A DNA stretch of 64,000 bases, from NCBI GenBank assembly GCA_000004985.1, contig GG738889.1. The stretch is one strand, 5' to 3'. Origin of the DNA: Naegleria gruberi. Taxonomy: Eukaryota. The position numbers and the translations under genes were made by a program. Of this stretch, positions 6,579 through 36,995 are shown piece by piece (position 1 is the first letter of the stretch; each line of letters begins with the position of its first letter). Under the pieces are notes generated by a model, which was not told the DNA's origin, did no database searches, and saw nothing but the letters and a program-made list of their open reading frames with translations.

Positions 6579-9037
6579 TTATTCTTCGTCATCGATAACA
6601 ATAGCATCTTCATCCTCTTCCTCTACTTTTTTCTTTGATCTTGATGAGCTTGCTTTCTTTGGTTTTTCTTCAGTTTTCTTTGGTCTTCCTCTTCTCTTTG
6701 GTTGTTCTTCTTCCTCTTCGTCTTCATCTACATCTAATGCTTTGAACTTGGCTTTCTTTGAAGCTGCTGCCTTTCCTCTTGTTTTCTTTGGCTTTTCTTC
6801 CTCTTCATCACTTTCGTTCTTCTTTCTTTTAGCTCCTCTCTTTTTTGGTTTTTCTTCCTCTTCATCACTGGCAACCTTCTTTTTTCTTCCTCTTGTCGTC
6901 TTTTTTGGTTTCTCTTCCGCAGCTTCTTCGTCGCTTACAACCTTCTTTTTTCTTCCTCTGGTTGTTTTCTTTGGTATCTCTTCTTCCTCTTCTTCACTTT
7001 CATTTTTCTTCTTTCTGCTTGTAGGTTTCTTCTTTTCGACAATTTCCTCTTCCTCAAGAATATCCTCTTCATCAGATTTGTCCTCAGATTTTGAAGCCTT
7101 AGAGAGCCTGTCAGACATTATTTTATCCTTATCCAAGTTCTCTTTGCTTTCTTCTCTATACTTTTGTAAATATTTCTCCAAATCAGATTCAGAAATGTCT
7201 TGATTGGCAAATTGTTTGAGATCAGACCACAATTTCTTTTGTTTTGACTTGATATCACTAGCAACAAAGTCATCAATGGCATGAGCTTCTTCCTTATCTA
7301 CAAAGTCAACAACAGAGTTTTGGAATTCAAATTCATTCAATACTAATAAACCATTAATATTAGTTTTTTTGGTGGATGTCTCTTTCAGGAAATGTGAAAC
7401 TAAATCTTCAATCTTGATACCATCAGTAAGAGCATCACTTGCAGCATCTGCAAATAGCTCACTATTATTATCATTATTCAAAATTGCATTAAGTAATTGT
7501 TCTTTGGATTTCTTTTTCTTACTCTTCTTTTTTCCCTTTTCCTCTTCAACTTCTTCATCCTCTTCCATGTTGTCCTCTTCCTTTGATGCCTTTTTCCTTG
7601 ATAATAAAAGCAAATCTGATGGGTTGGCAATCTTTCCAACAAAGTTTTGACCAAATCTTTGAGGATTGACAGTGGCATAACCACCACTGTAATCTACTCT
7701 GAGTCTGATAATTGGTAGATCTAATCCAGGATATTTCTTATAGTAGGCTTTGAGTTCTTTAATTGCTTCTTCATCCCCTTCAAAATTACTTAGTTTGTCT
7801 TCCTTAGCTTGTTTAATTAATTGATTTACGTGTTCTTTAAGGAAATCAGCAATTTCGTCTGGATTGTTCTTAATATGTTTCAAATCTTGTTCAAAATCAG
7901 AGAGAGAAATTGAATCAAATACGTAAGGTCTTACAGTTTTCAATGTAATTGGAATAACTCTGAATGAATCTTTGTAAATTTCCAAGATGGCAACCTTTTT
8001 TGGCTTAGCTTCTTGGTGTGTGTATGTAGTAGAAATAGAACTACCTGGTTGCATTACTTCAAATCCACCAGTAGCACTTTTTGTTGGAGTGATTTGTTGT
8101 TCATGTTCATGACCCCACACTACTAGATCAAAAAATCCTTTCAGCATACTTTCACTAATATTTCCTTTCTTTGTGTGATGTTGATTTCTATTTTGGTGAA
8201 TGGTCATCAAATTAAACCATTCATTTGAACCTTGACTATCTTCACCACTTGGTCTAAAGAATGTCACTTTCTGATTTTTAAATGTTTGATATAAACGTTC
8301 GTCTCTTATATAACCAAGTCCATAAAGTGCAAGTTTAGTTTCTCCTTTTTGTACTAAAATAGGTTTAACTTGAATATTATCCACAGTTTCACACTTTCCG
8401 AAATAATTTATCAAATTACATTGTGCAAGAACATCCAAAACACTGAGACTATTCTCTCCAGACCAAGCATCATGATTACCTAATGTTTTAATCATTGTCA
8501 TATAAATTATGAAAACTCATAAAATACAAACTTACCACTGATTGCAAAAATTGGAAGAGAAATATTAACATTAGGATCTTCATAATTTACAGTTCCTTCA
8601 GGATTTGATTTGAAATTTACAGATTGATCACTTAAAATTTGCAAAGGAACAGGCTTGTCACCAAAAACATATTTTCTCAGAATTGATATTGTCTTGTGAA
8701 GAGTATCACGAGAAGGCTTGTTATCATGGAAAAGATCACCTCCCTGTAACACAAAATCTACATTATATTTGTGACCATATTGAATAATCTCCTCAAAGAT
8801 GATAAAAGAGTCATCCTTTCTAACTGTATCACGTTCCAAGTATCCAACATGATTATCCGTTGTTATTAAAACTCTGAGAACATCCTTTTCATCAACATCT
8901 TGCTCATTAACACCACTTGATCCTTCTTCAACAGGTTTAATTCCTCCCTCTTCATCATCAACATAACTACGCTGTGATGAGAGACGGAAATTAGAGGCTT
9001 GTGAAGCTCCACTCTGTGTCCTAGGCATATTGTTCAA
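6579..9037 (-). CDS. MRE11: MRE11 double-strand break repair nuclease. Two exons at about 9037..8536 and 8479..6579.
   Basis: Exon 1 has phosphoesterase motifs I-III (TDNHVGY, GGDLFHDNKPSR) and ends ...PIFAISG with a GTAAGT donor. A 56-bp intron ends in CATTAG. Exon 2 begins NHDAWSG (motif IV, GNHD) and continues through the MRE11 capping domain. The long K/E-rich C-terminal tail carries basic repeats. Confidence 0.9.
6745..7060. repeat. imperfect tandem repeats (about 60-66 bp units) encoding the K/E-rich AT-hook-like tail of MRE11
   Basis: A repeated tcttcc/ttttttgg motif on the plus strand corresponds to reiterated EEKPKKTTRGRKKKV[A/V]SDEE peptides, plus one KRRGRPKK unit. Confidence 0.5.
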
Positions 9038-9332: not shown

Positions 9333-10646
9333 ATGGAAAATCTTACACCACTACTTTTTGATTTTTCCGAAGATGATCCATATTCCGAAGATGATCCAGA
9401 AGAATATTGCACAACAATGGAAAGTAGTGATGTAATGGATGATATCATTTTCAGGCCAATAGTGAATCATCTTCCAAGAGAAATAATACTTGAAATTTTG
9501 AGCTTTTTCCGATTGGAAAATATTAATCCAGTTAATAATGAAAGTGAATTAATCAAGATGTGTTTTGGCAGATTTTCAAATGATAGTAGTATTGAGTGTT
9601 TGTTTAGATGGATTGATGTAGATGGTGTAGCCTGGAGGAAAATGGACAAGTATCCACAACAGATAATTCATCTATTACAATTAAATAACAGAGGTGCAGG
9701 AATTGAATTGAAACCAGTAATGTTTCGAATGATGGAAGAGAATATAGTGATGAAGGATTTCTTCTTTGATGCTGGAAGGTTTGATTTTTCGTTGGTGGAA
9801 TCATTGGAAATGAATTGCCAACAAATGGCGCTTGATCTCATTCAGAGAGCTCTACAAACTTTTACTTTTGTGAAAAGCATTGAAATTGAGATGAGTTATT
9901 CAGAAGCTTCATTGATTGAAATTGTACCCTTCTTATCAAATATGTCAAATTTGAAATTATTTGCTTTTCATTGTGATGATTTTGTTACATTCGATTTGTT
10001 AGAATTATCCAAAGTGACTCCACAATTGGAAGAGTTAAGAATTTCATCCTCTTCTTCCATACTCGCATGTCACCAAGCTGTTTCCAATTGGAAACATTTA
10101 AAACGACTTGAATGGGCATTTGTTTCGTATGATAATTTATTTTCTGGTTTTGATGAATCTGATAACTTTAATGAGGATGCCAGACTATTCTATGAAGTTC
10201 TCAACAAGTCATTAGTTGAGCATCTTAGTTTAAAATTGGAGAAATTGACAGATTTCTTTGAAATAACATCACCCTTATTGAAGGATCTGTCATTGAAGAA
10301 TTGCACTCTTTCACCTATGAATTATTCTAACATTCTCAAGATTGAAAAATTGGAAAGATTGACATTGATCAACTCTCATGACGAAATTATCAAACAAGCT
10401 CCTTATCACCTCAAAAATCTCAAATATTTATGCATTAGTGAGTGTGATTCAAAATCTCTTGAGTACATTAACAAAATAGCTTCACTTCAAACGATTGACT
10501 TTGTTTCTCCAAAATTCATGCCTAATCAACTCTCTATCTTTAATGGACATCCTTCCCTTGACAAAATTATAATTAAAGGAATCACATTTAAAAGAGAATT
10601 TTTCAGAGATCTAGAAAATATTGAAATCAAATTACAACAGCATTAA
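9333..10646 (+). CDS. F-box-like / leucine-rich-repeat protein
   Basis: ATG start. The N-terminal IFRPIVNHLPREIILEILSFF fits an F-box (LPxEI...IL). The remainder is repetitive L-rich segments (LxxLxLxxC) typical of FBXL-type LRRs. Confidence 0.45.
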   Translation: MENLTPLLFDFSEDDPYSEDDPEEYCTTMESSDVMDDIIFRPIVNHLPREIILEILSFFRLENINPVNNESELIKMCFGRFSNDSSIECLFRWIDVDGVAWRKMDKYPQQIIHLLQLNNRGAGIELKPVMFRMMEENIVMKDFFFDAGRFDFSLVESLEMNCQQMALDLIQRALQTFTFVKSIEIEMSYSEASLIEIVPFLSNMSNLKLFAFHCDDFVTFDLLELSKVTPQLEELRISSSSSILACHQAVSNWKHLKRLEWAFVSYDNLFSGFDESDNFNEDARLFYEVLNKSLVEHLSLKLEKLTDFFEITSPLLKDLSLKNCTLSPMNYSNILKIEKLERLTLINSHDEIIKQAPYHLKNLKYLCISECDSKSLEYINKIASLQTIDFVSPKFMPNQLSIFNGHPSLDKIIIKGITFKREFFRDLENIEIKLQQH

Positions 10647-11484: not shown

Positions 11485-11982
11485 ATGAAAAATTGGACCA
11501 AAACAACCAGCAGAACAGTTTCCTTCATAGACGAAACTCAAAAGGTGAAGTCTAAAGTGGAGGGAAAGAATGTTGAACCAAAACTTAAAAAAAGATTGAG
11601 AAAAGACTTACAAAACAACAAATTGCTGAAGAATTACTTTGTGTTCCATAATGAAGATCCACAGGGTGATGTGTTTATTTACAAAGTTATCCAAGATCAA
11701 AAAGACGAAACTATTAGAAACCAAGATAAAGTAATCACACGCCACAAGATACCAGTTAAAGCAATGGACATAAATAATACTTCATCAACCAATCCACCTT
11801 TTCATCCAGGCAATCATTCAGATATTCTAAATATTGCAAGTTTCCTCTCCAGTATTCCATTACAATCAGTTGACCAGCTTGATAGAACAACCATTGCATC
11901 CTTGTTTGGGCTAGATGCTACTAATCATGAAACTACACATCTATCTTATTGTAATCAAGACAATGAATCCACTTTTTTATGA
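11485..11982 (+). CDS. hypothetical protein, possibly continuing into a second exon to about 12217
   Basis: ATG-initiated 165-aa ORF with a basic N-terminus. A candidate 42-bp intron (GTAATC...AACAG) at about 11947-11988 would join it in frame to the 11990-12217 ORF. No family recognised. Confidence 0.3.
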   Translation: MKNWTKTTSRTVSFIDETQKVKSKVEGKNVEPKLKKRLRKDLQNNKLLKNYFVFHNEDPQGDVFIYKVIQDQKDETIRNQDKVITRHKIPVKAMDINNTSSTNPPFHPGNHSDILNIASFLSSIPLQSVDQLDRTTIASLFGLDATNHETTHLSYCNQDNESTFL

Positions 11983-12172
11983 TTCTCAACAGTACTGTAA
12001 AAAAGCTTTCTCATTTGCAAGCATTCTTGAAACACAAATAAACCCTGACAATTATACTCCTGAAATGGTGGTCTTTGTTAACACTGGATTGACAATTATT
12101 AAGGTTTCATATTTTCAAGACATGGTTTTTATTATTACAATTCCTCTAGATCCACTTCATGCTTCCAAAGAA

Positions 12173-15100
12173 TTAGAATCTTGGTGGAGGTGGAGGAACA
12201 CTACCACCACCAAATGAAGGTGGAGGAGGAACACCTCCTGACATTGGTGAGGAAGGTGGAGGTGGAGGAACACTGCTTGCTCCACCAAATGAAGGTGGAG
12301 GTGGAGGCATAGAACCACCTGATGGTGGAGGTGGAGGTGGAGTATTCATCATATTTCCTCCCATTGTTGGGGATGAAGAATATGAGCTAGGACTGCTACT
12401 GTATGTATCCATAGATGGAGGTTGTGAAGTTGGAGTATGTTGTGAAGAACCACCAAATACTGATCCACGACTTCTGAAATTAGAAAATGATTGTTCATTG
12501 GTTGTGACAGTGGCAACAATTTTGACCTTTGTGAAATCTTCATCGGCTGGTGGTGCGTAATCATCTGGAGTATTGTCTGCAAGTGGATAGTAATTACGTA
12601 AGCAATTGAATACACGATTGTTAATGGAACGAACAATGTGTGCATTATTGAGGAATGGTTTCAATTTTTCAAAACCTTCCTTTGAAATATTGGAAATATT
12701 CAAAACGTGATCAGAAAAGTTGAAAGCATCAAATCTGAGTTGTTGTTGGAAGAGATAGACAATTGTAGAACCTCCCCAGAAGAAACCATCTCCAAAGACT
12801 TCAAAATCAGATGGTTCATTGGCAACTTCAGGTGGAATACAGAAAACAAATTGCAAAACACCCCACAAACGATAGAATTCCTTTGAAGAGTCCAACTTTT
12901 GCAAACGATCTGGTGGTGAAGTACCTTTCCATGATTCTCTAACGTTAGCAAGGAAACCACTCATTCTTTCCAAGAATTGTTTGAAGAGTGACAATAGTTC
13001 ACGTGGAGGTTGATACATTCTCATAGCTCTAGAAGCTTGTTCAGTAAGCTTCTTGGACAATTCTGGAGCGTGAATACTTTGTTGAACTTGTGGATCATTG
13101 ACGAATGAAGCAATAGTTGTGGCAAGTGGTGTTTGTTCAACATCCTTTCTAATATAATAATCAGAAAGTTTTTGCAACAAGAGTAAATCTTCTGACATCA
13201 TGTGTTCACTTGTTAAACCATAACGAGATGATTTACGTGCAAGACTATTCTTTTGGTGTTGTTGCTGTTGTTCTTGGAATTCAGCTTCATTTTCAATTTC
13301 TTCTTGTAACTTTTCAACTCTCTTTTGTTTGGCAGTCTTAGTGAGCGGCTTAATACCCAAGAATGGAGCAGAAGCAATATAGGTTGAAATATTTTGAGGC
13401 ATCATACTAGAATCGAGTAAGAGAAGGAAACAGATACAATTACCAATACTTCTAAAGGCGTGGAATACACCTCCCTTCAAATCATCATAATCAAGGAAAT
13501 CTCTGAATTGAGCAATGAAATATGAATAGACACCTATTAATTTGTAAGCAGCAGGTTGGAGTGTAATCTTTGGTGCAATGGCTTCCATCATAGCACCAAT
13601 GTATGGAGACATTTGATTGTACAACTTATCTTCAATATCAGTAATAACAGTTTCAATAATGAGGGCAAGAGATTCTTGACCAACCAATCTGATCAAAGTT
13701 TCAATGTGTGGACGACCGAAGAATTCCTTATATTGATCTAAAATTGGTGTGAATGCTTCAGAGAAACCAGCTGTTACAAATTGATGGAGAGCACGAGGCT
13801 TGTAACTTTCTCTCTTGTAGTCAATTTCACTGTATGTATATTTACTACGTACGAAACGATGGGTGACAGTGTTGAAACAGAAGTTAGGGAAGAAGTCCAT
13901 AATCAATTCTTCAATAATGTGTCTGGCAATACGACTTTCGAATGAAACCATACTGGTACAATCGTTGACTTCAGCAAAGACAGATTCGAAAGAGTCCAAA
14001 GCAAGGTGTTTAGATAAAAGTTGGTGAGTGATTTTAACACTTTCCAACATGATTTCCAATTCAACGATACCATTCAATTCTTGGGATTCGAATTTCTTGA
14101 TGAGAGCCAAAATGTTTTCTCTGATGTTTACGTTCATACGTTGGGTAATAATATAGTTCAAGTCAACATATCGACCAAGAATGTTAATGTGTTTCTGTAA
14201 GAGCAAAACGTCAAACTTGCTCTTGGTAAAGTTAAAGTTTGTCTTTACGAATTGATCCTTTTCTAATGGAACACGCAACTTGTTGTCAAGTAAAATACCA
14301 AGAGCAACAGATCTGTAGTGTTTGTAGATAGATTCACTCAATTTAAAGATCAATTGATCAAAGACCAAGTTAACTTCAGCTTCAATTTCATCATATAAGA
14401 ATCTACGCTTCAAAACAAACAATGCTCTATAAGCGGCATCATTGTAAATGTTAATTGGATAAATGATAGATTCCATCAAGGCACTGTTAGTTCTCTTCAA
14501 AATTTCTTCAGTAAGAATCCATGGCAATGACATTTCAATAGGGAACTGAATCTTCTTGGAAATTTCCAAATAGAATTCACGATACCACAAATCAGCCAAA
14601 TCAGCAGCACGTCTCAATGTGGTAGAGTAGGCCAACAAGTAATTCCAAGTGTAGGTCTTATTGTAGAATTCCTTGAAAGATTCGACATGGGAATCATTAA
14701 AGTCTTTCTTGGAGAAAATACCTGATTTTTGCATACCTGGACTTCTTTCACTGTACAAAGTGGAAATGATTGAACGAATCATGTGAAGTTGTGTGAAAGA
14801 TGGACCAACAATTCTCTTTGGATATTCCAAGGCAGCTTCACCCTTCTTCTTTGTTGGTTTGGTAATGTCTTGAGGTGGTTCATTGAGCCAGTCACCAGCC
14901 AAGTTTCTCAATTCCAAAACAGTTGGGAAGATTGGTCTTTGCTTGTTCTTTGTGTGATAGAGCATATCTTGTAAGTCAACTTGGATGAACTGTTGCAATT
15001 GGTAGTGAATTTCTGAACGAATCAAAGGAGCCATCAATGCATTTTGTTGTAACATGATATTTTCGAGACCCTTGATCATTGAAATGGCATCAACTAGAGC

Positions 15101-16728
15101 TGATCTTTCATCCTTGTCATAGTTGAAACGAACCACACGTTCATATTCAAGTATATCAACCTTTTGACTAGCATCAACAGCTTCATAACGTTGCTTTAAA
15201 GTTCTTGCTTGTTCATCATCAATTGGATGTGAGTATTTCCAAGCACATTGTTCCAAGATAGCGGTTGTCCAAGAGGCAATTAATTTCATACCTTGTTCAG
15301 TCATATCTTTAGCTTTTTCACGCATTGGTTGAGGAATAATTGTTAACAATTCTTGACTTGTTGGAGAATCCTTGATCAATTTCTTCATACGATTGATATG
15401 AAGTTTATAATTTTTAGTGAAATTTTGGAAATCAAATCTCATCTTTGGAATTTGATTAACAAGAAGGAATTGTTTTTGTAATTGTTCTTCTTCCTTTTGA
15501 GAGAGAGACCAATCCTTTTCTTGTAAATTTGGACAATTCTTTAAAACTGTCTTGATAGAGAATGTCATATCACCATATAATGGAATATTTGGATATGATT
15601 TGAAAATCTTGTTAAATCTACCCATACTGTTGGATCCAACTTTTCTCAAATAGTTATTCTTTGAAGTATCCTTGTTATCAATGAGATACATTCCAAATAC
15701 CAAAACACGAATTAATGTGTGTTTTTGATCACAGAACAAATATTGATGATCTTCAAAATTTTCAGAGCATCTTTCCATCAATAGAATGATAATATCTTCA
15801 TATCCAGCATTCTTTATCAGAGAATCTTTGAGACCAGAAATGATAGTATTATTGTTTGATAAGAAATTATAAAGAAGACCATATTCTTCACTCTTTGTAT
15901 CTAAGAAATTCAATTGTTCTTGTGTTAAACCTTCCTTGTCCATGAATTGAGCAGCACGTCTAACAGTTGACATGTCGTTGTTAATGGCTGCTTTCATGTT
16001 TTTGAGAGCATCCAACTTGAGGATTGTATCTAAAACACTAATCATATAATCAAACATGGTTTCACTAGGAATTTCCTTTCTCTTTTCATTAGCAGCCATT
16101 TCAATCATAATCTTTGTGAGTGTTTTGACGGTATTTGTGTGAAAAGCCATCAAATCACGAATCTTTTTAATTTCTGGTTCCAAAACATCGAAAAACTTTC
16201 TATATAATTCAGCCTTGTTTTCAGAATCTGCTTGAATTTGAGGAAGAGCACGTGAAATTGAACGATAAGTGTACAAGGTTTGAATAAAGTATTCACCAGT
16301 TTCTATTATTTCTTGCTATTATTATTGTAAGTGTTATTGTTAGTGATAGTGATGTTATTATTATAGTTGCGATATTTGATGGTTTTGTTGTTGTTATTCG
16401 AAATGGTGGAATCGAATAATATTTGTCATCAACAATTTGTGATTATTATATAATAAATAGTAAAATAAAGATCATAATTGTGAATGTAATATTAAATAGA
16501 AGCAGTGTGAGATTAGTCTAATCATGAGAACAAACCTACCAAAATTTGAATATGTTCAGCTTCTTTAGCAAAACGAGTAGTATAACCACAACGATCAGCA
16601 AAATTGAGTGGACTTGTAAAAGCACCAGTTTCGTAACTAATATAATCTGATGCTGCTTCAATGGTTGGCTGATTAGACTCAACCATGTAAGAGTTGAGTA
16701 CTTTCAATCGTTGCTTGGTATTGTCCAT
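12173..16728 (-). CDS. CYFIP: cytoplasmic FMR1-interacting protein (CYFIP/Sra-1/PIR121, WAVE/SCAR complex subunit). Two exons at about 16728..16540 and 16315..12173.
   Basis: Exon 1, MDNTKQ...NFADRCGYTTRFAKEAEHIQIL, aligns to the CYFIP N-terminus ([21 protein letters not shown]). A 224-bp intron (GTAGGT...AATAG) follows. Exon 2, QEIIETGEYFIQTLYTYRSISRALPQ..., aligns along the whole length of metazoan CYFIP1 and includes conserved blocks such as QFPIEMSLPWILTE and YDEIEAEVNL. It ends with a roughly 120-aa non-conserved Pro-rich tail. Confidence 0.9.
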
Positions 16729-19240: not shown

Positions 19241-19605
19241 ATTGTAATCTTACTCTTGAATAAAGCTCTTATTCTATCCACAAGAGTAAGGATTCAAAGT
19301 TGTTATTCAGCATGTTTTCAGTAGCAATGAATCAGGGAATTTTTCAGAGTCGAATTTTGATTCAGCTATTGGATCAAAACTCTCTATCAAATCAATTTGA
19401 TCCTCGAAAAATTTAATTCGGATCACAACTCAACATCAAATTGTTTATTTTTCAAAATTTGATATTGAGTTTTCACAAACTGACCATCAAAAATTTTATA
19501 CGGGACGCAGTATTATTAAGATTTAAAAAAAGGCTTTTTGGAATGACCAACAACGCTTTGAATAACAACAATACCAACACACTATTTTTAGCGAACACAC
19601 GGAAG

Positions 19606-22600
19606 ATGTGGTCGTCTTCAATGGTATATTGTGTTCTTATTTTAATGTTGATAATATACTTTATTGAGGCTACGGAATCAACAATAACGTGCAATAACAT
19701 TGATAGCAACTTGAGTAATGTTTGCTCAGGAAATGGAATTTGTATTTCCAATAATGTTTGTTCGTGTTATGTTGGTTTTGATGGAGCTGCTTGCGATACA
19801 CCAAGAACTATTCAGAATTTATTTGCAGGATACTCTGTCTTATCAAGAAATTCTTCAATATCATCCAACAAAATAATTAATTTATTTGGAAATGTTGCAA
19901 ACACTCCCTCATCGTCTCAACTCTATACTAATTTCAATATAACATCAGGTATTACACATGATGGAGATGTCTATGCTTCTCATTACATTAACCAAGCAGA
20001 ACAATACTTTAAACAATTAGACAACCTTCCTTGCGATTTTACTCTGAGATCATCTCCCCGTATTGGTAGAATTGAGGTTCGTTATGGAGGTGTTGGTTGT
20101 TTTGAGGCTGGTTGGACTGGTCCATCAACAGTGGTTATTAAGGGCTCTCAACGAGTAGTTTTCAAGATTAAGGGTAATTTCATTACCAATGAAATAACCT
20201 TTGCTCTCTCCAAATGTGCCTCAGAGAATAATATTTACTGGCTTGTGAATGGTAATACAAAGATAACTAACAATTTTAAGGGAATTCTGAAAACTGCTGG
20301 AAAGGTCGATATCACTAATGCTAACATTGATGGAACATTGTTCATTAATAATACCTCTGCGACTTTTACAAATGTAACCTTTGGACCTGTCTCCACATTT
20401 GATCCATATCAGTCATTAACTAACTCTGAGTGCTCTCTTTCTTCTTGTTATGGAATCCTTTCCAATGAAACATCTGTTTGTGCTGGTGTAGGTTTATGTT
20501 ACGATGACAATGCCTGTTTTTGTCCATTGGGATATGGACAAGATTGTTCATTACCTTTGTGTTATGGAGTGCTTCAAAACTCTGCTAGCGTATGTTCTGG
20601 CAACGGTAATTGTACAGGACCAGATACATGTGAATGCAAAGAAGGTCATCTGGGATTGAATTGTTCAATTTCTCTCCCACCTTGCTATGGAATTGGAAAT
20701 GATACCAGTCGCATTTGCTCAGGTGTTGGAAATTGTACATCGAAAGGAGTGTGCAGTTGCCCTGATGGATATGGATTTGATTGCTCAGTACCCATTTGTA
20801 ATGGAGTGCTTGCCTACAACAAAGCATGCAGTTCTCATGGTACATGTATTGCCCCTAACAGTTGCTCATGCTCATCTCATTATCATGGAGACAATTGTGA
20901 GCTTACTACATGTTTCGATATTCCATCAGATAATTCCACGACTTGTTCTGGAAATGGTGACTGTATAGATTACAATCGCTGTAGATGTTTTGATGGGTAT
21001 CAAGGAAGTGATTGTGGTCAGTTGACAACTACAATAATCTACGAAAATATCACAATCTATGAGAATGAAACCATATGGATTGAATATAACACCACAGAAT
21101 ATATCAATGAAACTATATATATTCGTCAAAATCAAACAGATGTAGTAATTGATGATGGTGCAATTATATTTACACCAAACCCTACAGGATCTAATCCAAT
21201 TACTTTCAACACAACTAGAGTCAATGTCACTATTATTACCTACTATAATGCAACCTCAAATTCTACTACCACAGTGACAACAACTACAACAACTGTTGTC
21301 GTGTATACCACAATAGTGTGTAGTAAATCCCTTAATTGTTCCAATCATGGAGAATGTAATTCCAATGGAGCTTGTACTTGCTATTCAAACTTTGATACTG
21401 GTTTTTGGTCAGGTTCTAGTTGTAACACTTGTAGAGATGGATTCCATGGTAATAATTGTGCTACAAAGGTTGTTGGACCTGCTTACATATCCAATGATTT
21501 CACAGGAGTTACGTTTTATCTTTATGCACCAAACTCTTACACAAGTAATCAAATAAGCTGCAACAAACTATTACATCCTGATGATATCAGTAGTAACATG
21601 TTTGGAGATGCAAGCAAAATACAATGTAGCTATGTAGATAGGGCTAGCTACTTGTTTATGATTACTTTTGGGTCTAATGATTATGTATTTAATGCTGGTG
21701 CGTCTAACTTACGTATTAACACTCATGTATTTGATCAGAGTGCAGGTTCTGCAGATTATCTTTCAATGATTATCAATCTACCACAAGGATTTTCTGGTCC
21801 AGTAGCCAAGATTTCAATGGCGTTTACTTCAACATACAGCTCTTGCGAAGAAATTGTAATTGATGGTTCAGGAAGTACTGCACCATATGGAGGTAGTCTT
21901 ACATATTACTGGACTTTGCTTAATGCAGCTACAATGCAGGTTTTATCGACAAACTTTGCAAATCAACCAAAAATTACTCTTCCAGCTTCATTAAGTTCTG
22001 GAAGTTACCAAGTATCTCTGAAAATTCAAGGTGAATTCTTACATCTTTCCAGTGCAGTAGTACACACAGGAACATTCACTAAAGCTCCAAAACCTGTTCC
22101 AGTAATAACTTTTTACAAAGGAAATACCCAGCTAAGGTATACTAATCAATTCCCATATACAATCAAAAAAGTAATCGAATCTCCTTGTAGAGACTCAAAT
22201 AATACAATAGTACGTTGGGAACAACTAAGCGGACCATCTATTGAGTACTCAGTGGACTCCTATAACAATCTATACATCCCAAAACTCAAAACATTTGGAA
22301 ACAATAACTATACATTTAAGGTATCCGCTTATTATACTGATGCAAATTATCAAGGTTCTAGTGATTTTGTTTTAATTACACAATCACCTCCTTTGAGTTT
22401 AGAACTTTATCAAGCTGAAGCAAAGACTGATCACTCGACTGTTGAGGTTATTTATTCAGACCCAGAATCTGCTTTAATCTCAAAAAGTGAAACATGGACT
22501 TGGTCTAGCTTGGATTATCAAGGACCAAGATTATATACATTTTTAACTACCCAATCCAATCAAAAATCTTCTAGTCTTTACTTGACATCCAATTATTTTG

Positions 22601-25038
22601 ATCCTGTGCCAGCAATGGTCACAATTCAATTAAGAATTGAAAAATCTGATGGTAGATTTGTACAAAAGTCTTCAATTGTTCGATTTGGTGCTGTTGCTCC
22701 TTCTTTCAACGTAATCAGTCAACAACCAAACACAGCTTACTTAAAACCAGGCTCTCCAATTACAATCCATTCATTGGTTTCTTCCTCTTCAACATCTGTG
22801 TTTGTTTCTTGGAGATTAAACAATGAAATGATTTCAACTACTAAGACAATAATTCAATCAAACTGGGGAAGACAAATTAATCAGGTTATGTTTGACACCT
22901 CAAATCTTGTGGATGGTACAACAAACACAATCACAGCAGTTGTTTCAGATTCAAGCACACAAGGAACAAGTACAACCACAATAGTTGTGCAAGTGGCTAA
23001 ACGTCCATCCCTTTGTGCATGTGATATTACTCCATCAGTTGGTATTGCTATGGAAACACAGTTTTCTTTCGGTTGTACTCAATGCAAAACAACCGACAAC
23101 AATGTTGACTATAATTATGGATTTATAGATGACAGGTCTGGAATGAAGGTGTCTCTGTATAAACTCGGAGAAGTATTTTCATCTACTTTACCAGCTCCAT
23201 TGAATGGAAATACCCTTACTTGTTATATTGACATAATTGATACTGTGACCGGAGGATCGGTTAACATGACAAAGAAAATAACAGTCAACAAACAATCAAC
23301 AACAAGCTTGTCTGAAATTCAAACCTTGGTAAAGTCTTGGACTGATACCGTAAATCAATACTTGAAAGACGGACAAATCAGTAAGAGTTTCTACATGACA
23401 GCAACTTTCCTAAGAACCGATACAGTGCTAGTTAGAGAAGCAATTAAGGTTCTTGCTTCAACTTCAAGAAGAGATATTGTTTGCTCTCATGGTGTTGAAG
23501 TATCTGGAGTTTGTAAATGTGCAGACGGTTATGTTGGTACTAACTGTGAGGTTCCAATATTTGGTTACAGTCAAAGCCAGTCTGTAAAATTAACAGCCTT
23601 TACAAACATTATTAAGCTTTCTAATTCATCTTATGACATCATCAATGATGAGTATTTTACTCTTTTAGTTTTCTCAATAGATTCTGTTTTGGAAAATTAT
23701 GAGTATCTAGAGAAGAAGACTGTTGGACAAGCCCTTGACACTCTGAACCTATACCTTACAAGTGTAGTTGCTATTGATGACTTTAACTTGCCAAACGGAG
23801 TAGAAATTCTTTTGAAAAACATTATTCAAAACACTTATATTTACGTCGTTGAAAAGCAAATGTTCACAGACCAAACAGAAAACTCAAAAAAGTTGCTTAT
23901 TCTCCTCACTTTAACAACAACTCTCATGTCAAGAACCATTTCTTATGGAAGTTCTTCTAGCGTATTCAAAACTCAATATTTTTCATATACAATGAATAAG
24001 TATTCAATTTACGATTTCCCTCCAATTGTGTCAGATAACTCAAGAATATGCCAAATTATTGTTGAAGGGCTGTTTTTCTCAAATGCAAAATCAACAAAAC
24101 TTTACAGACAACCATTTGGTTTTGTTATGACTGTGTCAGATGACGTTTTCCAATTAGGACCAACTATTGGATTGCAAAAATCAACTAAAGAAAACATTCA
24201 AGCAAGTTCCTCACTGGTTTCTCCTATTATGTCCTTATCATTTAATGGGTTGACTGCTCCTGTTGATTTTAATGGTATCATCTATATTCTTCCAATCAAC
24301 AAGACAACTACCTTTAAGATATTTGATCAAGGAACTTTTGATTATGTTGAATCTGTAACTGAATATACATGTAACTCTTTTAAGGATTCACCAGAAGCAA
24401 TTACCAAATGTAAGCTTGTTGAAATGAATGCAACCCACACAAAATGTAGTTGTTCTACCCTGGGTAATGTCTTTGTAATGGAAACCACAACAATTACAAA
24501 ATATTCCCTTACAATCTTTGTGATTATGGGAGCTTCTATTATTGTAATAGGTAGTGCTATAGTCACAATATTCTCATTCTGTTGCTGTTGTTGCCGTTGT
24601 GTTGTGATAGGAAGAAGAAGATTCTCTGAACGTCATAGCGAGGCAAAGATAGTTCGTGTTAAGCATGATGTTAGAGCAATGTTTTTGGAAAAACCAGGTA
24701 CAAATGACTTTGTTACAACAGAAAGAGTTCAACTAAGGAATGATAACAATAAGGTTACAAGAACTATTATAACTACAGACCCTCTCTTAGTTACAAATAA
24801 CACAAAGACAGTTGTTATGCAAAGCCCAAGAATGTACACAAAGGAAACAACCTATGTTACCAAAACTCATCATCACCAAGGAGGACAAACAGTTGTTTTT
24901 GATACACCTAGACCTGAAGTTGTCATAGCATCTCGCCCAAGGGTTCTTGAGGAAATTGTAACCAATCGACCAGTTGTTGTGAGAAGAAATCAAGTTCAAC
25001 CAATGGATGTTGAACTTGTTGAGAGAAGAAGATATTAA
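19606..25038 (+). CDS. large EGF/tenascin-like repeat type I transmembrane glycoprotein
   Basis: The likely start is at 19606 (MWSSSMVYCVLILMLIIYFIEA), which looks like a signal peptide. The track ORF starts upstream in frame at a non-coding Met. The mature protein has more than ten C-x-G-x-G-x-C...C-x-C-x-x-G-(F/Y)-x-G-x-x-C EGF-like modules and very many N-x-S/T sites. It also has a Thr-rich mucin-like stretch and a single TM (IFVIMGASIIVIGSAIVTIF) followed by a Cys-rich juxtamembrane and a short cytoplasmic tail. Confidence 0.8.
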   Translation: MWSSSMVYCVLILMLIIYFIEATESTITCNNIDSNLSNVCSGNGICISNNVCSCYVGFDGAACDTPRTIQNLFAGYSVLSRNSSISSNKIINLFGNVANTPSSSQLYTNFNITSGITHDGDVYASHYINQAEQYFKQLDNLPCDFTLRSSPRIGRIEVRYGGVGCFEAGWTGPSTVVIKGSQRVVFKIKGNFITNEITFALSKCASENNIYWLVNGNTKITNNFKGILKTAGKVDITNANIDGTLFINNTSATFTNVTFGPVSTFDPYQSLTNSECSLSSCYGILSNETSVCAGVGLCYDDNACFCPLGYGQDCSLPLCYGVLQNSASVCSGNGNCTGPDTCECKEGHLGLNCSISLPPCYGIGNDTSRICSGVGNCTSKGVCSCPDGYGFDCSVPICNGVLAYNKACSSHGTCIAPNSCSCSSHYHGDNCELTTCFDIPSDNSTTCSGNGDCIDYNRCRCFDGYQGSDCGQLTTTIIYENITIYENETIWIEYNTTEYINETIYIRQNQTDVVIDDGAIIFTPNPTGSNPITFNTTRVNVTIITYYNATSNSTTTVTTTTTTVVVYTTIVCSKSLNCSNHGECNSNGACTCYSNFDTGFWSGSSCNTCRDGFHGNNCATKVVGPAYISNDFTGVTFYLYAPNSYTSNQISCNKLLHPDDISSNMFGDASKIQCSYVDRASYLFMITFGSNDYVFNAGASNLRINTHVFDQSAGSADYLSMIINLPQGFSGPVAKISMAFTSTYSSCEEIVIDGSGSTAPYGGSLTYYWTLLNAATMQVLSTNFANQPKITLPASLSSGSYQVSLKIQGEFLHLSSAVVHTGTFTKAPKPVPVITFYKGNTQLRYTNQFPYTIKKVIESPCRDSNNTIVRWEQLSGPSIEYSVDSYNNLYIPKLKTFGNNNYTFKVSAYYTDANYQGSSDFVLITQSPPLSLELYQAEAKTDHSTVEVIYSDPESALISKSETWTWSSLDYQGPRLYTFLTTQSNQKSSSLYLTSNYFDPVPAMVTIQLRIEKSDGRFVQKSSIVRFGAVAPSFNVISQQPNTAYLKPGSPITIHSLVSSSSTSVFVSWRLNNEMISTTKTIIQSNWGRQINQVMFDTSNLVDGTTNTITAVVSDSSTQGTSTTTIVVQVAKRPSLCACDITPSVGIAMETQFSFGCTQCKTTDNNVDYNYGFIDDRSGMKVSLYKLGEVFSSTLPAPLNGNTLTCYIDIIDTVTGGSVNMTKKITVNKQSTTSLSEIQTLVKSWTDTVNQYLKDGQISKSFYMTATFLRTDTVLVREAIKVLASTSRRDIVCSHGVEVSGVCKCADGYVGTNCEVPIFGYSQSQSVKLTAFTNIIKLSNSSYDIINDEYFTLLVFSIDSVLENYEYLEKKTVGQALDTLNLYLTSVVAIDDFNLPNGVEILLKNIIQNTYIYVVEKQMFTDQTENSKKLLILLTLTTTLMSRTISYGSSSSVFKTQYFSYTMNKYSIYDFPPIVSDNSRICQIIVEGLFFSNAKSTKLYRQPFGFVMTVSDDVFQLGPTIGLQKSTKENIQASSSLVSPIMSLSFNGLTAPVDFNGIIYILPINKTTTFKIFDQGTFDYVESVTEYTCNSFKDSPEAITKCKLVEMNATHTKCSCSTLGNVFVMETTTITKYSLTIFVIMGASIIVIGSAIVTIFSFCCCCCRCVVIGRRRFSERHSEAKIVRVKHDVRAMFLEKPGTNDFVTTERVQLRNDNNKVTRTIITTDPLLVTNNTKTVVMQSPRMYTKETTYVTKTHHHQGGQTVVFDTPRPEVVIASRPRVLEEIVTNRPVVVRRNQVQPMDVELVERRRY

Positions 25039-25158: not shown

Positions 25159-26571
25159 ATGCAACAAGAGGAAAACACATCTCTCCTTTCACACAATATT
25201 GATGAGTTACAATCCTTTCACACCAACACACCAAATCTATCATCATTAAATCATCAAAAAACACCCGATGAAGGAAATCCTGCCACCACGGAAGAAATAG
25301 AATCACTTTTACATCAAAATTTACCACCTCCTGGTAAATCATCAGCACTTGATGTTGTATTTAATATTAGTAATTGTACAATTGGAGCAGGCGTTTTAGC
25401 AATACCTTTTGCATTCCATCAAAGTGGAATTTTATTGGGATGTTTCATTTTGCTATTTGTTTGTGTCATTTCAACATTGACATCTCAGTTTCTGTTGAGG
25501 GCTTGTGAAATCTCAAAACAACCAACCTATAAGGAAATTGGTATGAAAGCTTTTAAGGGAAACAAGATTGCTGGCTTTATAATTGATATTTCAATGATTG
25601 TATTTTGTTTTGGAGTTATGCTTGGATATACTTCAATTGTTGGAGATTATTCATCAAGTTTATTTAAAACTATTTATTCTGATTATTATTGGCAAGGAGA
25701 AAATGTTAATTATGATAACATTCTATTCTCTAAAAACTTTAATAGCTTTTTATTAATGATAACTGTCATGTTACCTTTGAGTTGTTTCAAAAGAATTGGA
25801 TTTTTGTTTTTTACTTCCTATTTCACAATAGTTTGTGTATTGTATACTTTATTTGTCATAATGTATGGTTTCTTTTCAAAAGTTACAACACTTGATAAGA
25901 GAATTGACCATAGTATTACTTTATTTCAATCATGGGAAAGTTTTTCACAGGTTTTTGTTGCTTTTCCAGTTTTATTCTTTTCATTTGGTAATACTGTTAC
26001 ATTGATTCCAATTTATTACGAATTGAAAAATAAGAATCAGAGAACTATGACTCATGTCATTAATGGAGCTTCAGTTCTCTGTTTGATTTTCTATCTAATT
26101 ACTGGAATATTTGGTTATATTCAATTTGGAGATAATAGCATTAAGGAGAATATTCTAAACTCATTTAGAAAACACAATGTAATGGTAATATTCGCCAAAT
26201 TAGCAATGATTATTGTTTCTGTCATTTCCTATCCGCTTGTTCATTTCCCTGCAAGACAAAATGTTGAACAGCTATTATTCCCAAATAGACCATTTTCTTA
26301 TATTAGATGGATTATTGAGGCAGTTGTGTTTGCAACCTTAACCTTACTAGTTCTATTAATTCCTTTCGATTTGGTTACAATATTTGGAATAACTGGTGCC
26401 AGTGTTGGAATGATGGTCATGTTTATTTTCCCATGTGTATTCTATGCAATTCTTGAGACCAATAAGAAGAAGAGAGCTTTTGCTATTGTGGTTGCTTGTA
26501 TTTGCTTGATTTTAGGAGTAATTTCATCTGCTAGTGTTATTGCTGACTTTGTCCAGAAAATGTCTCAATAA
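25159..26571 (+). CDS. amino acid/auxin permease-family (Aa_trans, SLC36/38-like) transporter
   Basis: ATG start with about 11 predicted TM helices. A conserved N-terminal NxxNxxIGAGVLAIPFAF motif is characteristic of the AAAP family. Confidence 0.8.
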   Translation: MQQEENTSLLSHNIDELQSFHTNTPNLSSLNHQKTPDEGNPATTEEIESLLHQNLPPPGKSSALDVVFNISNCTIGAGVLAIPFAFHQSGILLGCFILLFVCVISTLTSQFLLRACEISKQPTYKEIGMKAFKGNKIAGFIIDISMIVFCFGVMLGYTSIVGDYSSSLFKTIYSDYYWQGENVNYDNILFSKNFNSFLLMITVMLPLSCFKRIGFLFFTSYFTIVCVLYTLFVIMYGFFSKVTTLDKRIDHSITLFQSWESFSQVFVAFPVLFFSFGNTVTLIPIYYELKNKNQRTMTHVINGASVLCLIFYLITGIFGYIQFGDNSIKENILNSFRKHNVMVIFAKLAMIIVSVISYPLVHFPARQNVEQLLFPNRPFSYIRWIIEAVVFATLTLLVLLIPFDLVTIFGITGASVGMMVMFIFPCVFYAILETNKKKRAFAIVVACICLILGVISSASVIADFVQKMSQ

Positions 26572-33370: not shown

Positions 33371-33390
33371 TTGGCGCCAATATTTGGCGC
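33371..33390. promoter_or_regulatory. palindromic and tandem E2F-type sites (TTGGCGCCAA followed by TTTGGCGC) about 40 bp upstream of the cohesin SA start codon
   Basis: A GC-rich 10-bp perfect palindrome plus a TTTSSCGC match sit in otherwise AT-rich DNA. This resembles the overlapping inverted E2F sites of S-phase gene promoters. Confidence 0.4.
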
Positions 33391-33425
33391 TCAACATAAA
33401 ATTCACAATCAAAAAAAATAACAAA

Positions 33426-36400
33426 ATGGGTAGAACTCCACGTATTGCCAAGCGCAAAACATCAACAAAGAGAAAAAGAAAGGATGAGAGTGAAGATGAA
33501 CACGAATCTGATCAATCAGAAAATGAACAAGTAACTGTGGCCTCTGAACAAAGCGAAGATGAACAATCTGAAGCAGAGGAACCATCAGAACCATCATCAT
33601 CAGAAGACGAAGCCTTCCACGATGATGAAAAGGATGAGGATTTCGAGCCTCCAAAACCAAGAACATCAAGAAAGAAGTCTACAACAAAAAAGACAACAAC
33701 CAAGAAAAAGGATACAACAACAACAACACCTAGGAAGAAGAAACTTAAAACTGGTACATCAACAACAACAAAGAAAACAAAAACTAGTGGTGAATCTAAA
33801 GGAAAAAAGAAAGGATCAAAGAAAAAGGATGATATTATTGAAGAGGATATGGTTGTTGTAAATGAAGACAAGGATTCTATGTTTGCTTCTGTTAGAAAAG
33901 AAAGCTCAGCTATCAGAGAAATTGTTGACAACTGGCAAGAAAGCTTTGATTCTGATAAATCAAAGGCTACTGCTGAATTGTTGACATTTTTATTACACTC
34001 ATCAGGTGCAAAGGGTGAAACAGAATTTGCTGCAAAAAAACTTAAAGTTGTAGAATCATCAAAAATGGAAAAGGTTATTGATGATTTGATTGAAGAATTA
34101 CCAACTAGTCTGCAAGTTTATCCAATTATTAACAATCACCCATCTCTCAAACACTTTAGAAAGAACTTTGCTGATTTTTGGGATACTTTTGTTGATGTAA
34201 CAAAGGAAGGTTCACAACTTTATGAAAAGATTATTCAAGAAAAGTTTATGAATTGGCTTTTCTTAATGACATCATCTACTTGCAGAGCTTTGAGACATAC
34301 ATCAACATTGGCAGCATATCGTATTGCCTCTAGCGCCATTGATGCAAGAAGATCAGAGGCTAAAACATTGGCTAAACTTGAAAAACAAGCAAAGGCAGCC
34401 AAGAATAAGAAGAAGGAAACGGAATTGTTGGATCTGTGTGAAGAACATCAAGATAAGACAAACACTCTGGAGAAGATATGTAAAGATATCTTTTCGCAGA
34501 TTTTTGTTAAGAGATACAGAGATTCATGCCCAGATATTCGTGCTCTTTCTCTTTTACAAGGTGTTGAATGGGTTATTGGACTTCCAGAACAATTTTTAAA
34601 TGATTCTTCGTTAAAATTCTTTGGTTGGATGTTAAATGATACTGAAGAAAGTGTAAGAAAAGTTGCTGTCCAAGTTTTGGATAAAATTTACAGTAAGAAA
34701 GATTGGAAAGATCAATTGAACAATTTTACATTACAATTTTTACCAAGAATTATTTCAGTCACTCGTGATGTTTCAGTTTCAGTTTCTGTTGAAGGAATCA
34801 AACTTTTAACAACACTCCTCCAAAATGGTTACTTGAAAGCTAATCACATTGAGGAAGTTTCCAAACTTATGTTCAGTGAAGTTTCTAGCGTAAGATTTTA
34901 TGCTGCCAAGTTTGCGTATACACATATCAAATCTAAATCAGATTCATCTAAGTCCAAGAAATCCAAAAAGTCTGATGTCAGTTTGAAAGATGTTCTTGAA
35001 TTTGTTTCTGAATCTGTTGAAGAGTTTCCTATGGCTCCATATTATGTTGTAGATTCGTGGTGGAGTCTTGATAGTGATATTTTCAGAAGCTACAAGCAAA
35101 TTTGTCAAATGATCAATGATGAAGAAGGTGATGCTATAACATTAATCAAGATACTTAATGCCTCCATTCAAAAACTTAAGGGTTCTTTGAAGAGTGTGAC
35201 AAGTTCGTCAGATAATGTTAAAGTTAATACAAAATCTAAACTTACAACAAAAGAAGTAGAAGAAGAAGTTGAAGAAATTACAGGTATTTTAGCACCATAT
35301 CTTTCAGGATTGATTGATAAATACAGAACTGAACCTGAAATTGTTGCAGAGTTGATTGAAATTCCACAACATTTAGATATGGATAATTACGCTGAATCAC
35401 ATTTCACAAAACTTTTAAAGTCTCTTAAAGAAACATTGAACACAAATATTTCCCCAACAGTATATCTTCAAATTGCTAAAACATTCAAATATCTCATTAA
35501 GGATCATGAGGATTTCTCACTCAGATCAGAGGCTACTCTTCAATATAATGAGATAATCAGAGAAATGTCATCTCAACTCAAAGATGCTGTTCAAACACTT
35601 CACGAACAAGATGAACCAACAGCAGACGTGTTATCAACATTACACAGAATAAGAGCCTTTACAAAGGTTGTAGGAACTTCACAATTAATTGCTGATGAAG
35701 TTTTGTTTGAAGATATGAACATTATTTTAGAGTCAAAGATTTCAGAAATTGAAATGTCACAAAAGGATGATTCATCTAGTTCTGAAGAAGAAGTTGATGA
35801 AGTTACACCTATCATTATTGATATTATTCAAGATGATTTGTTCTGGACTCTAAAGGACTCATTGGAAGAAAAGGGTGAACCTAGAGCCAAACTTCAAAAG
35901 AAGTATCTAACTAAGCAAGAAAAGATTACAACTCCTCTTTTCTACGTATTAAAGAAAGGAAAGATTGGGTCTTCCATCATTTTACATTGTTTCAACCATT
36001 TAATGAATATTTACATGATTACATGTGCTGATAATGTTGGTTCTGATACACTTATTCCATTAACCACTAATGATAGAGTTGAAATTTTGAGAAGATTCTT
36101 CACCAAGTCAATGAAACATCTCACTAAGGAATATATTTTGAATAGTGTTTCTGATGAAGAAAATGTAGATGAAGACGAAAAGAAGAAGAAAGATGCTAAA
36201 ATCAAAGTAATCAATCAAACAGTTTCTGATCTTATTCTAGGATTATCAAGAGCTATTATCTGTAAGAGTTTACCAGATACTCTTATTCCAGATATTTTAT
36301 CATACTTTGTCAAGACCAAGATTCCTATTGTTGAGGATGTCATCAAAAAGTTCCACGCCGATATTAAACACCGTTTCGAATCCAAGTTATGGGAATATGA

Positions 36401-36995
36401 ATTTGGTGCTTTGAAGGTTTTACACAGTGCTTATCTCGATTATGTTGAACAAGAAGAAGAAAAATCAATCATCAAGAAAGCCAGCAAAGATTTGGAAGAG
36501 TTAGGCTCCAGAATCAGCAAATCTCACTTCCCTGGAAAAGATGTTAAACATTTGGAATCACTTGTTACTCATACCATCAACTTTATCTTTGATGATATTA
36601 ACCAATATCATTCATTCCTTACTGGTTTAATGAAATTCCGTTTCAAGGGTCTTTCGGACGCCAAGAGATCCGAATTTGTCAAATCAATCAACAGAAAACT
36701 TGACCAAATTGATGATATTGACAAAAAAGCAAAGGAAAATGTTGAATCATTCATTGAACTTTTGGAAGTAAAGAAGAAGAAGGGTGATGAAACAGAAGAC
36801 GAAAAGACTGACAATGAAAAGGATAAGATGGAAGACGAAGAAGAAGAAGAAGAAAAGAAAGATGAAGAGGAAGAAAAAGAGGAAGAAAAGAAAGATGACA
36901 AGATGGAAGATGATGACAATACTCAAATATCTGAAACTAAGGAAAATGAAGAAGATGAAGAATTAATCTCAAGCAAACCTAGATCCTCCCTTTAA
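33426..36995 (+). CDS. cohesin subunit SA/STAG/Scc3 (stromalin)
   Basis: The real ATG is at 33426 (MGRTPRIAKRK). The track ORF begins at an upstream TTG. The basic and acidic N-terminus is followed by the stromalin conserved domain FSQIFVKRYRDSCPDIRALSLLQGVEWVIGLPEQFLNDSSLKFFGWMLNDTEESVRKVAV, which matches the STAG SCD (HRYRD..IR...LNDSYLKY.GW). There is an acidic E/K-rich C-terminus. Confidence 0.8.
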   Translation: MGRTPRIAKRKTSTKRKRKDESEDEHESDQSENEQVTVASEQSEDEQSEAEEPSEPSSSEDEAFHDDEKDEDFEPPKPRTSRKKSTTKKTTTKKKDTTTTTPRKKKLKTGTSTTTKKTKTSGESKGKKKGSKKKDDIIEEDMVVVNEDKDSMFASVRKESSAIREIVDNWQESFDSDKSKATAELLTFLLHSSGAKGETEFAAKKLKVVESSKMEKVIDDLIEELPTSLQVYPIINNHPSLKHFRKNFADFWDTFVDVTKEGSQLYEKIIQEKFMNWLFLMTSSTCRALRHTSTLAAYRIASSAIDARRSEAKTLAKLEKQAKAAKNKKKETELLDLCEEHQDKTNTLEKICKDIFSQIFVKRYRDSCPDIRALSLLQGVEWVIGLPEQFLNDSSLKFFGWMLNDTEESVRKVAVQVLDKIYSKKDWKDQLNNFTLQFLPRIISVTRDVSVSVSVEGIKLLTTLLQNGYLKANHIEEVSKLMFSEVSSVRFYAAKFAYTHIKSKSDSSKSKKSKKSDVSLKDVLEFVSESVEEFPMAPYYVVDSWWSLDSDIFRSYKQICQMINDEEGDAITLIKILNASIQKLKGSLKSVTSSSDNVKVNTKSKLTTKEVEEEVEEITGILAPYLSGLIDKYRTEPEIVAELIEIPQHLDMDNYAESHFTKLLKSLKETLNTNISPTVYLQIAKTFKYLIKDHEDFSLRSEATLQYNEIIREMSSQLKDAVQTLHEQDEPTADVLSTLHRIRAFTKVVGTSQLIADEVLFEDMNIILESKISEIEMSQKDDSSSSEEEVDEVTPIIIDIIQDDLFWTLKDSLEEKGEPRAKLQKKYLTKQEKITTPLFYVLKKGKIGSSIILHCFNHLMNIYMITCADNVGSDTLIPLTTNDRVEILRRFFTKSMKHLTKEYILNSVSDEENVDEDEKKKKDAKIKVINQTVSDLILGLSRAIICKSLPDTLIPDILSYFVKTKIPIVEDVIKKFHADIKHRFESKLWEYEFGALKVLHSAYLDYVEQEEEKSIIKKASKDLEELGSRISKSHFPGKDVKHLESLVTHTINFIFDDINQYHSFLTGLMKFRFKGLSDAKRSEFVKSINRKLDQIDDIDKKAKENVESFIELLEVKKKKGDETEDEKTDNEKDKMEDEEEEEEKKDEEEEKEEEKKDDKMEDDDNTQISETKENEEDEELISSKPRSSL

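Follow-up and report, generated by a model that had tools for sequence, protein, structure and literature searches.

The gene described here lies on the minus strand of a 64,000-nt stretch of Naegleria gruberi DNA (contig GG738889.1, assembly GCA_000004985.1; from here: the window). It encodes the CYFIP/PirA/Sra1 orthologue of this organism, a subunit of the WAVE regulatory complex (WRC, also SCAR/WAVE complex). The gene product of 1443 aa, encoded by two exons, does not end with the conserved CYFIP fold; it continues into a low-complexity tail with five polyproline runs. We report that this tail is kept under purifying selection in Naegleria and that similar tails appear to be the usual condition in several protist lineages, including Dictyostelium, and we consider what it may contribute to the complex.

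The CYFIP locus

The identification of the gene as CYFIP in the original prediction, which had been made from the nucleotide sequence alone, was confirmed by profile and structure-based searches. In Pfam, the 1443-aa protein scores 816.3 bits (E = 3.8e-245) for FragX_IP (PF05994), where the cut-off is 23.3; for the CYRI/CYFIP Rac1-binding domain (PF07159, CYRIA-B_Rac1-bd) it reaches 27.5 bits, the cut-off being 23.1. CYFIP1 was the sole match in a phmmer search of the PDB (3p8c_A, E = 2.1e-193). The alignment is colinear, pairing residues 10-1072 of the query with 16-1052 of the chain and residues 1171-1310 with 1090-1230 (chain of 1253 residues). At the Rac A-site human R190 corresponds to the R in '...vrRaaqf' of the Naegleria protein, while human C179 is aligned with Ala. 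The best database match is the N. lovaniensis protein with 87% identity; this identity and the conserved Mre11 neighbour establish orthology between the two genes.

The features of the gene are listed in Table 1. Between 16315 and the TAA at 12175-12173 its minus-strand frame contains no stop. The acceptor AG of the single intron occupies 16317-16316, exon 2 begins at 16315, and an alternative acceptor at 16303 was ruled out because it causes a frameshift. The resulting exon junction (...HIQIL/QEIIETGEYF) agrees with the annotated N. lovaniensis protein (...SIQVLQEINERGEAF). In a further Naegleria genome (L002, see below) the gene call P0002 (2367-6917, 1516 aa) reads in frame through the equivalent 5′ intron, from which it follows that the position of the CYFIP intron is conserved. 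No genes for the partner subunits Nap1, SCAR/WAVE, Abi or HSPC300 were found in the 64-kb window; SCAR/WAVE complex subunits have been reported as encoded by Naegleria (PMC7594500).

Table 1. Features of the CYFIP gene and of its C-terminal tail (window coordinates)
Feature	Position	Strand	Basis or remark
CYFIP/PirA exon 1	16540..16728	(-)	ATG at 16728, 63 codons; sequence reading and splice model
Single CYFIP intron, GTAGGT...AATAG, 224 nt	16316..16539	(-)	Phase-0 donor and acceptor restore the frame
CYFIP exon 2, folded body, residues 64-1319	12548..16315	(-)	Pfam, colinearity with 3p8c_A, AlphaFold2
Conserved post-fold motif A-D-E-D-F-T-K-V-K-I-V-A-T-V, residues 1320-1333	12506..12547	(-)	Conserved in all heterolobosean orthologues
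S/T/G-rich low-complexity linker, residues 1334-1388 (~55 aa)	12341..12505	(-)	Composition; predicted local distance difference test (pLDDT) about 30-40
Polyproline module, residues 1389-1443	12176..12340	(-)	Five runs, G/S-rich spacers of 5-8 residues
Run of 6 prolines, residues 1389-1394	12323..12340	(-)	
Run of 5 prolines, residues 1400-1404	12293..12307	(-)	
Run of 5 prolines, residues 1413-1417	12254..12268	(-)	
Run of 4 prolines, residues 1426-1429	12218..12229	(-)	
Run of 5 prolines, residues 1437-1441	12182..12196	(-)	
CYFIP stop TAA	12173..12175	(-)	Two codons past the last polyproline run

Composition and layout of the C-terminal tail

Homology to CYFIP1 ends near residue 1310, close to the value of about 1300 given in the original prediction. 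AlphaFold2 modelling of the last 700 aa yielded a helical structure (predicted template modelling score 0.62) with a final helix at residues 1278-1305. From residue 1321 to the end pLDDT stays below 50, so that the tail is predicted to be disordered. It spans residues ~1320-1443 (12176-12547) and consists of 124 aa, among them 31 P, 26 S, 14 G and 9 T. The S/T/G-rich continuation of about 120 aa described initially is thus real, and the interval 12173-12560 assigned to it was right to ~13 nt at its upstream edge. Five blocks of five or six prolines had been counted; there are indeed five runs, one of which has four prolines only.

At the DNA level each run consists of 2.5-3.2 copies of a hexanucleotide of the CCACCT type, with a 6-nt periodicity located exactly at the runs. 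As these copies are few and a longer repeat unit is absent, tandem-repeat expansion was rejected, and the five blocks are not recent duplicates of one another. The GC content of the window is ~33%, and among all open reading frames (ORFs) of at least 100 aa in its six frames, that of CYFIP is the only one with any run of four or more prolines (PPPP+). The polyproline tail is therefore neither a chance nor a compositional effect. Read in antisense, the proline codons give rise to a 100-aa ORF on the plus strand (11915-12217, ending ...WWRWRNTTTTK), a mechanical consequence and no gene.

Directly after the fold, and with low pLDDT in the isolated AlphaFold2 fragment, lies a conserved motif that reads EDFTKVKIVATV in the protein described here. 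It follows the pattern [ED][DE]F.K.[KR][IV][IV][AS][ST]V in Heterolobosea, and a dictyostelid counterpart, EQFI[IV]TTTVEE, is recognisable. The motif is strand-like and perhaps also occurs in a sponge (EPTFVMTT). It might dock on another WRC subunit.

Translation and selection in Naegleria

The tail region was compared among four Naegleria genomes, i.e. the window, N. lovaniensis (L001), a Logan assembly (L002) and an ENA metagenome (L003). The CYFIP frame is the only one without stops in the tail across all four, the other two frames containing 0-3 and 5-7 stops. All four share the ending GVPPPPP[RK](G)[YF]-stop, and the position of the stop relative to the last run is the same in L001, L002 and L003. 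The linker is poorly alignable among the species and has accumulated in-frame indels.

Ratios of nonsynonymous to synonymous substitution rates (dN/dS) were calculated according to Nei and Gojobori for the tail and, within the fold, for its final ~340 codons. They range from 0.14 to 0.38 for the tail compared to 0.01 to 0.15 for the fold. In the one unsaturated pair, L001 and L002 (dS 0.36-0.49), dN/dS is 0.01 in the fold and 0.20 in the tail. Purifying selection hence acts on the tail, less strictly than on the fold, which is what a functional disordered region would be expected to show.

No splice donor of the extended consensus GT[AG]NGT was found between 12600 and 11990, and a convergent ORF ends at 11982, ~190 nt below the CYFIP stop. 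Among transcript-derived orthologues, tails are present in Pharyngomonas (transcriptome shotgun assembly GECH01013563.1) and in TRINITY contigs of Stygiella, Rigifila, Fabomonas and several protostelids. The original prediction had offered an unrecognised 3′ intron as an alternative to a translated tail. This alternative is not supported, given the frame and the C-terminal motif, which are kept up to the stop in four genomes, dN/dS below 1, the missing donor and the tails in transcripts of relatives.

Distribution of the tail across eukaryotes

The ten closest homologues, all of a heterolobosean or heterolobosean-like kind, have a terminal polyproline run, as does every heterolobosean orthologue that we found. 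The sequences with polyproline ends comprise those of N. lovaniensis, the two further Naegleria genomes, Willaertia, Acrasis, Pharyngomonas and several heterolobosean-like sequences. The number of runs differs widely: Pharyngomonas has nine, while a single short terminal run is left in Willaertia (...NIPPPPQL) and Acrasis (...DIPPPPPL).

A HMMER search with the last 315 residues retrieved 303 family members at E <= 0.001. For a census of tails we used 124 sequences reaching the end of the fold, taken from the 150 matches listed out of these 303 and from 24 sequences of another homology search. Among the matches listed, 52 of the 124 representatives have at least one PPPP+ run in their C-terminal extension and 45 have at least two. 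The median extension is 100 residues in the run-bearing group compared to 21 in the rest. In 41 of the 52 tail-bearing representatives, 1-3 residues separate the end of the last run from the C-terminus; the same holds for 72 of 280 fetched family sequences. The commonest endings, hydrophobic-PPPPPP followed by M, R or F, are of a type common to Heterolobosea, dictyostelids, Fabomonas, Rigifila and Rhodelphis.

Carriers within Discoba are Naegleria, Willaertia, Acrasis, Pharyngomonas and the jakobid Stygiella. Amoebozoan carriers include the dictyostelids D. discoideum (PirA, Q6UK63), D. purpureum, Polysphondylium, Heterostelium, Acytostelium and Tieghemostelium, in addition Physarum, Cochliopodium, Protostelium, Soliformovum, Cavostelium and Clastostelium, and weakly Balamuthia. 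Further carriers belong to the CRuMs (Rigifila), the ancyromonads (Fabomonas) and Rhodelphis. Many of the named carriers come from transcript assemblies. The true C-termini are hidden in two amoebozoan gene models (P0186 and P0282), namely that of Cavenderia fasciculata with 1866 aa and one of D. discoideum with 3249 aa, as both are apparently fused to neighbouring genes.

Among the holozoan sequences examined, the polyproline tail is absent from Capsaspora, Monosiga, a sponge, Nematostella and vertebrates including fish. The assumption that metazoan CYFIP has no such tail thus holds for the animal sequences examined. Representatives of a second class, with the ending ...FENTVSAFETLPQKG[AV], are tail-less as well. 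This class is presumably plant PIR121, in which case plants would also lack the tail.

To judge from the sequences compared, CYFIP normally carries the tail in Heterolobosea and many other protist lineages and lacks it in Holozoa. Comparison with CYFIP/PirA orthologues of related species had been named beforehand as a test that could refute the view of the tail as an unusual rewiring in this organism. By this test that view is not supported: the same type of tail is present in the Naegleria relatives, in other Heterolobosea and in D. discoideum PirA, making it lineage-typical. As the simplest reading we infer that it is an old feature that was lost in Holozoa and plants.

Some amoebozoan and other CYFIPs (among them P0192, P0194, P0204, P0052 and P0042) have a tail of another type, in which APPPLPRD(D) units with acidic flanks are repeated in place of pure polyproline and often are protein-terminal. 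These units point to ligands of the SH3/WW type in the respective lineages.

Comparison with known systems

The closest counterpart of the Naegleria tail is the C-terminus of D. discoideum PirA/PIR121 (Q6UK63), a sequence that has long been public. It belongs to the same family and length class and has the same order of elements: the post-fold motif EQFIVTTTVEE, a low-complexity linker and four runs, the last of which ends ...FAPPPPPPFGMPPPPPM, one residue from the C-terminus. The fold of dictyostelid orthologues is only about 35-38% identical to that of Naegleria CYFIP. The tails differ in detail, the linker being Q-rich in D. discoideum compared to S/T-rich in Naegleria, the residues preceding the tracts F/M/L/A compared to V/M/T, and the terminal residue M compared to R-F.

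Metazoan CYFIP1/Sra1, known from WRC structures (PDB 3P8C, 4N78, 7USC-E), shares with the Naegleria protein the colinear fold (residues 10-1310) and the arginine of the Rac A-site. Human CYFIP1 stops about 7 residues past the conserved ...CFQPP, whereas the Naegleria protein runs 124 residues further, and polyproline runs are lacking in every holozoan CYFIP examined.

Similar disordered multivalent tracts are found on other subunits of the WRC, namely in the proline-rich domains of SCAR/WAVE and in the tail of Abi. These tracts are documented to bind profilin-actin as well as SH3 and EVH1 domains and to be needed for protrusion (PMC3984289; PMC5753033; bioRxiv 10.1101/2022.05.14.491902, 10.1101/2025.03.24.645090). 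The tail described here sits on a different subunit, and the published deletions left the CYFIP tail untouched. It also does not belong to the WASP-family proline-rich regions: the chain ends two residues (R-F) past the last tract, without a WH2 or VCA domain.

The extension had initially been called FH1-like. It does resemble the FH1 region of formins (PF06346, Drf_FH1) in its repeated xPPPPPx tracts with short Gly/Ser/hydrophobic spacers; however, its tracts are shorter, Pfam detected no FH2 domain, and the likeness goes no further than resemblance. With 29.9 bits for the tail alone and 22.9 for the whole protein, the Drf_FH1 scores are below the cut-off of 40, and FH1 membership was rejected. 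By membership the tail is neither an FH1 domain nor a WASP-type proline-rich domain; it may work like them.

Possible function of the tail

We assign a probability of roughly 0.6 to the reading that the tail is a genuine, translated and lineage-typical C-terminus, most likely serving as a multivalent polyproline docking arm for profilin-actin and/or SH3 domains beside the proline-rich domains of SCAR and Abi. Its form suggests how it could work. The conserved motif that follows the last fold helix (~1305), the disordered linker of ~55 residues and the five tracts with their Gly/Ser spacers would together make a flexible multivalent ligand arm. Such an arm would add docking sites for profilin(-actin) and/or SH3/WW domains to those of SCAR/WAVE and Abi and would raise the local polyproline density at the membrane-bound complex. 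Tracts of this kind feed profilin-actin to growing filament ends there, a process to which the tail would contribute without being sufficient alone.

Most lamellipodial actin was reported to enter via profilin-polyproline contacts on membrane-associated polymerases including WAVE1 (bioRxiv 10.1101/2025.03.24.645090). Protrusion by the WAVE complex was found possible without the VCA domain, not without the proline-rich domains, which places the latter rather than the VCA at its centre (bioRxiv 10.1101/2022.05.14.491902). The original prediction held that the polyproline of the complex is supplied by WAVE/SCAR; this is incomplete, since Abi has a conserved polyproline tail, too (PMC3984289).

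Profilin binding of the tail is suggested by resemblance only, i.e. by runs of 4-6 prolines flanked by hydrophobic or Gly residues. For SH3 domains, the class II core PxxPx[RK] is present at the end (P1437-P-P-P1440-P-R1442) and is kept as PPPPP[RK] in the four Naegleria genomes. This match is weak evidence, since so permissive a pattern is easily matched and conservation does not extend beyond Naegleria. The class I EVH1 core [FLWY]PPPP is absent, the residues before the five runs being T, M, V, V and V.

Several points weigh against a docking arm of this kind. The Naegleria tracts are short, and tracts of 4-6 prolines are at the low end for profilin binding. The single short run kept by Willaertia and Acrasis indicates that the number of tracts is not strongly constrained. 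Low-complexity proline tracts can arise repeatedly; a single ancient origin is a tentative reading, and the tails may have been gained independently. The Naegleria evidence on the 3′ end is genomic, transcript support coming from relatives. Finally, in Dictyostelium cells without WASP and native Scar, Scar lacking polyproline and VCA fails to rescue while Abi and PirA are untouched (bioRxiv 10.1101/2022.05.14.491902). Since this PirA carries the tail, the CYFIP tail is insufficient to drive protrusion.

Alternatively, the tail could mainly be a regulatory docking site for SH3/WW adaptors and kinases that recruits or tunes the complex, as proposed for the Abi tail, and no feeder of profilin-actin. 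We think this unlikely, if by no means far-fetched. The minimal class II SH3 consensus at the Naegleria C-terminus fits it, as does the S/T-rich linker, which resembles a phosphorylation substrate. In the 72 sequences with a near-terminal run, moreover, R or K directly follows that run in 17 (R in 14), often as PPPPPPRD or PPPLPRD. The basic residue varies by lineage, however, with M in this position in 24 of the 72 sequences and F in six. PxxPx[RK] is very permissive inside any polyproline run, and the SH3 partner is hypothetical.

An improbable explanation is that slippage in the proline codons (CCACCT repeats) produced a harmless disordered appendage, a low-complexity sequence that is tolerated and has no function. 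The encoding of the tracts by short 6-nt repeats, the wide variation of tract number and linker length even inside Naegleria, the near loss of the tail in Willaertia and Acrasis and a tail dN/dS several-fold above that of the fold would all be in line with neutrality. On the other hand, dN/dS is well below 1, no heterolobosean sequence is without the terminal run, which distant supergroups retain as well, and drift would not hold a run 1-3 residues from the C-terminus in 41 of 52 representatives.

Least of all do we expect a gene-model artefact, in which an unseen 3′ intron or another stop strips the proline-rich region from the mature protein: the gene does contain one intron and its 3′ end in Naegleria is known from genomic sequence, but the conserved open frame and ending, the purifying selection, the lack of an extended donor consensus, the mere ~190 nt left between the stop and the convergent ORF and the transcripts of relatives make it very unlikely.

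If the docking-arm reading is extended in time, the tail could be a third proline-rich arm that the SCAR/WAVE complex inherited from the last ancestor shared by Discoba, Amoebozoa, CRuMs, ancyromonads and Rhodelphis, that was lost toward animals and plants, and that directly aids the delivery of profilin-actin. It would have been overlooked because the animal protein, which has no tail, was the object of all structural and most functional studies. We regard this scenario as tentative. If it is true, one arm was spared in the Dictyostelium experiments in which proline-rich domains were deleted. The conserved ending, hydrophobic-PPPPPP-[M/R/F]-COOH, may also be recognised specifically; we know of no protein that reads a C-terminal polyproline.

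No description of a proline-rich tail on PIR121/CYFIP/Sra1 was found in the full texts searched, which did not include subscription papers such as Blagg et al. 2003. The gene studied here is an ordinary, lineage-typical CYFIP orthologue, and the tail is no peculiarity of this genome. More useful is the wider pattern, in which extreme C-terminal polyproline is common in the CYFIP of several supergroups, including Dictyostelium, and missing in Holozoa and presumably in plants.

Gene neighbourhood and other loci in the window

Synteny with N. lovaniensis, for which the loci at 6582-8501 (-), 19441-25038 (+) and 25159-26571 (+) were compared, is partly kept, and Mre11 lies downstream of CYFIP in both species. 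Two additional plus-strand ORFs, at 9333-10646 (without a Pfam match) and at 11485-11982, are located between CYFIP and Mre11. An amino-acid transporter gene is directly upstream of CYFIP in N. lovaniensis; here an ORF of 1865 aa, which has EGF/teneurin-like and REJ domains, lies between the two.

Elsewhere in the window, a 1027-aa ORF at 40178-43261 (-) has no Pfam match at E <= 1e-5, and a 1203-aa ORF at 33384-36995 (+) is cohesin SCC3/STAG-like. At 53192-57655 (+) a 1487-aa ORF joins FAD_binding_4/ALO (arabinonolactone-oxidase-like) and methyltransferase domains, an unusual fusion.

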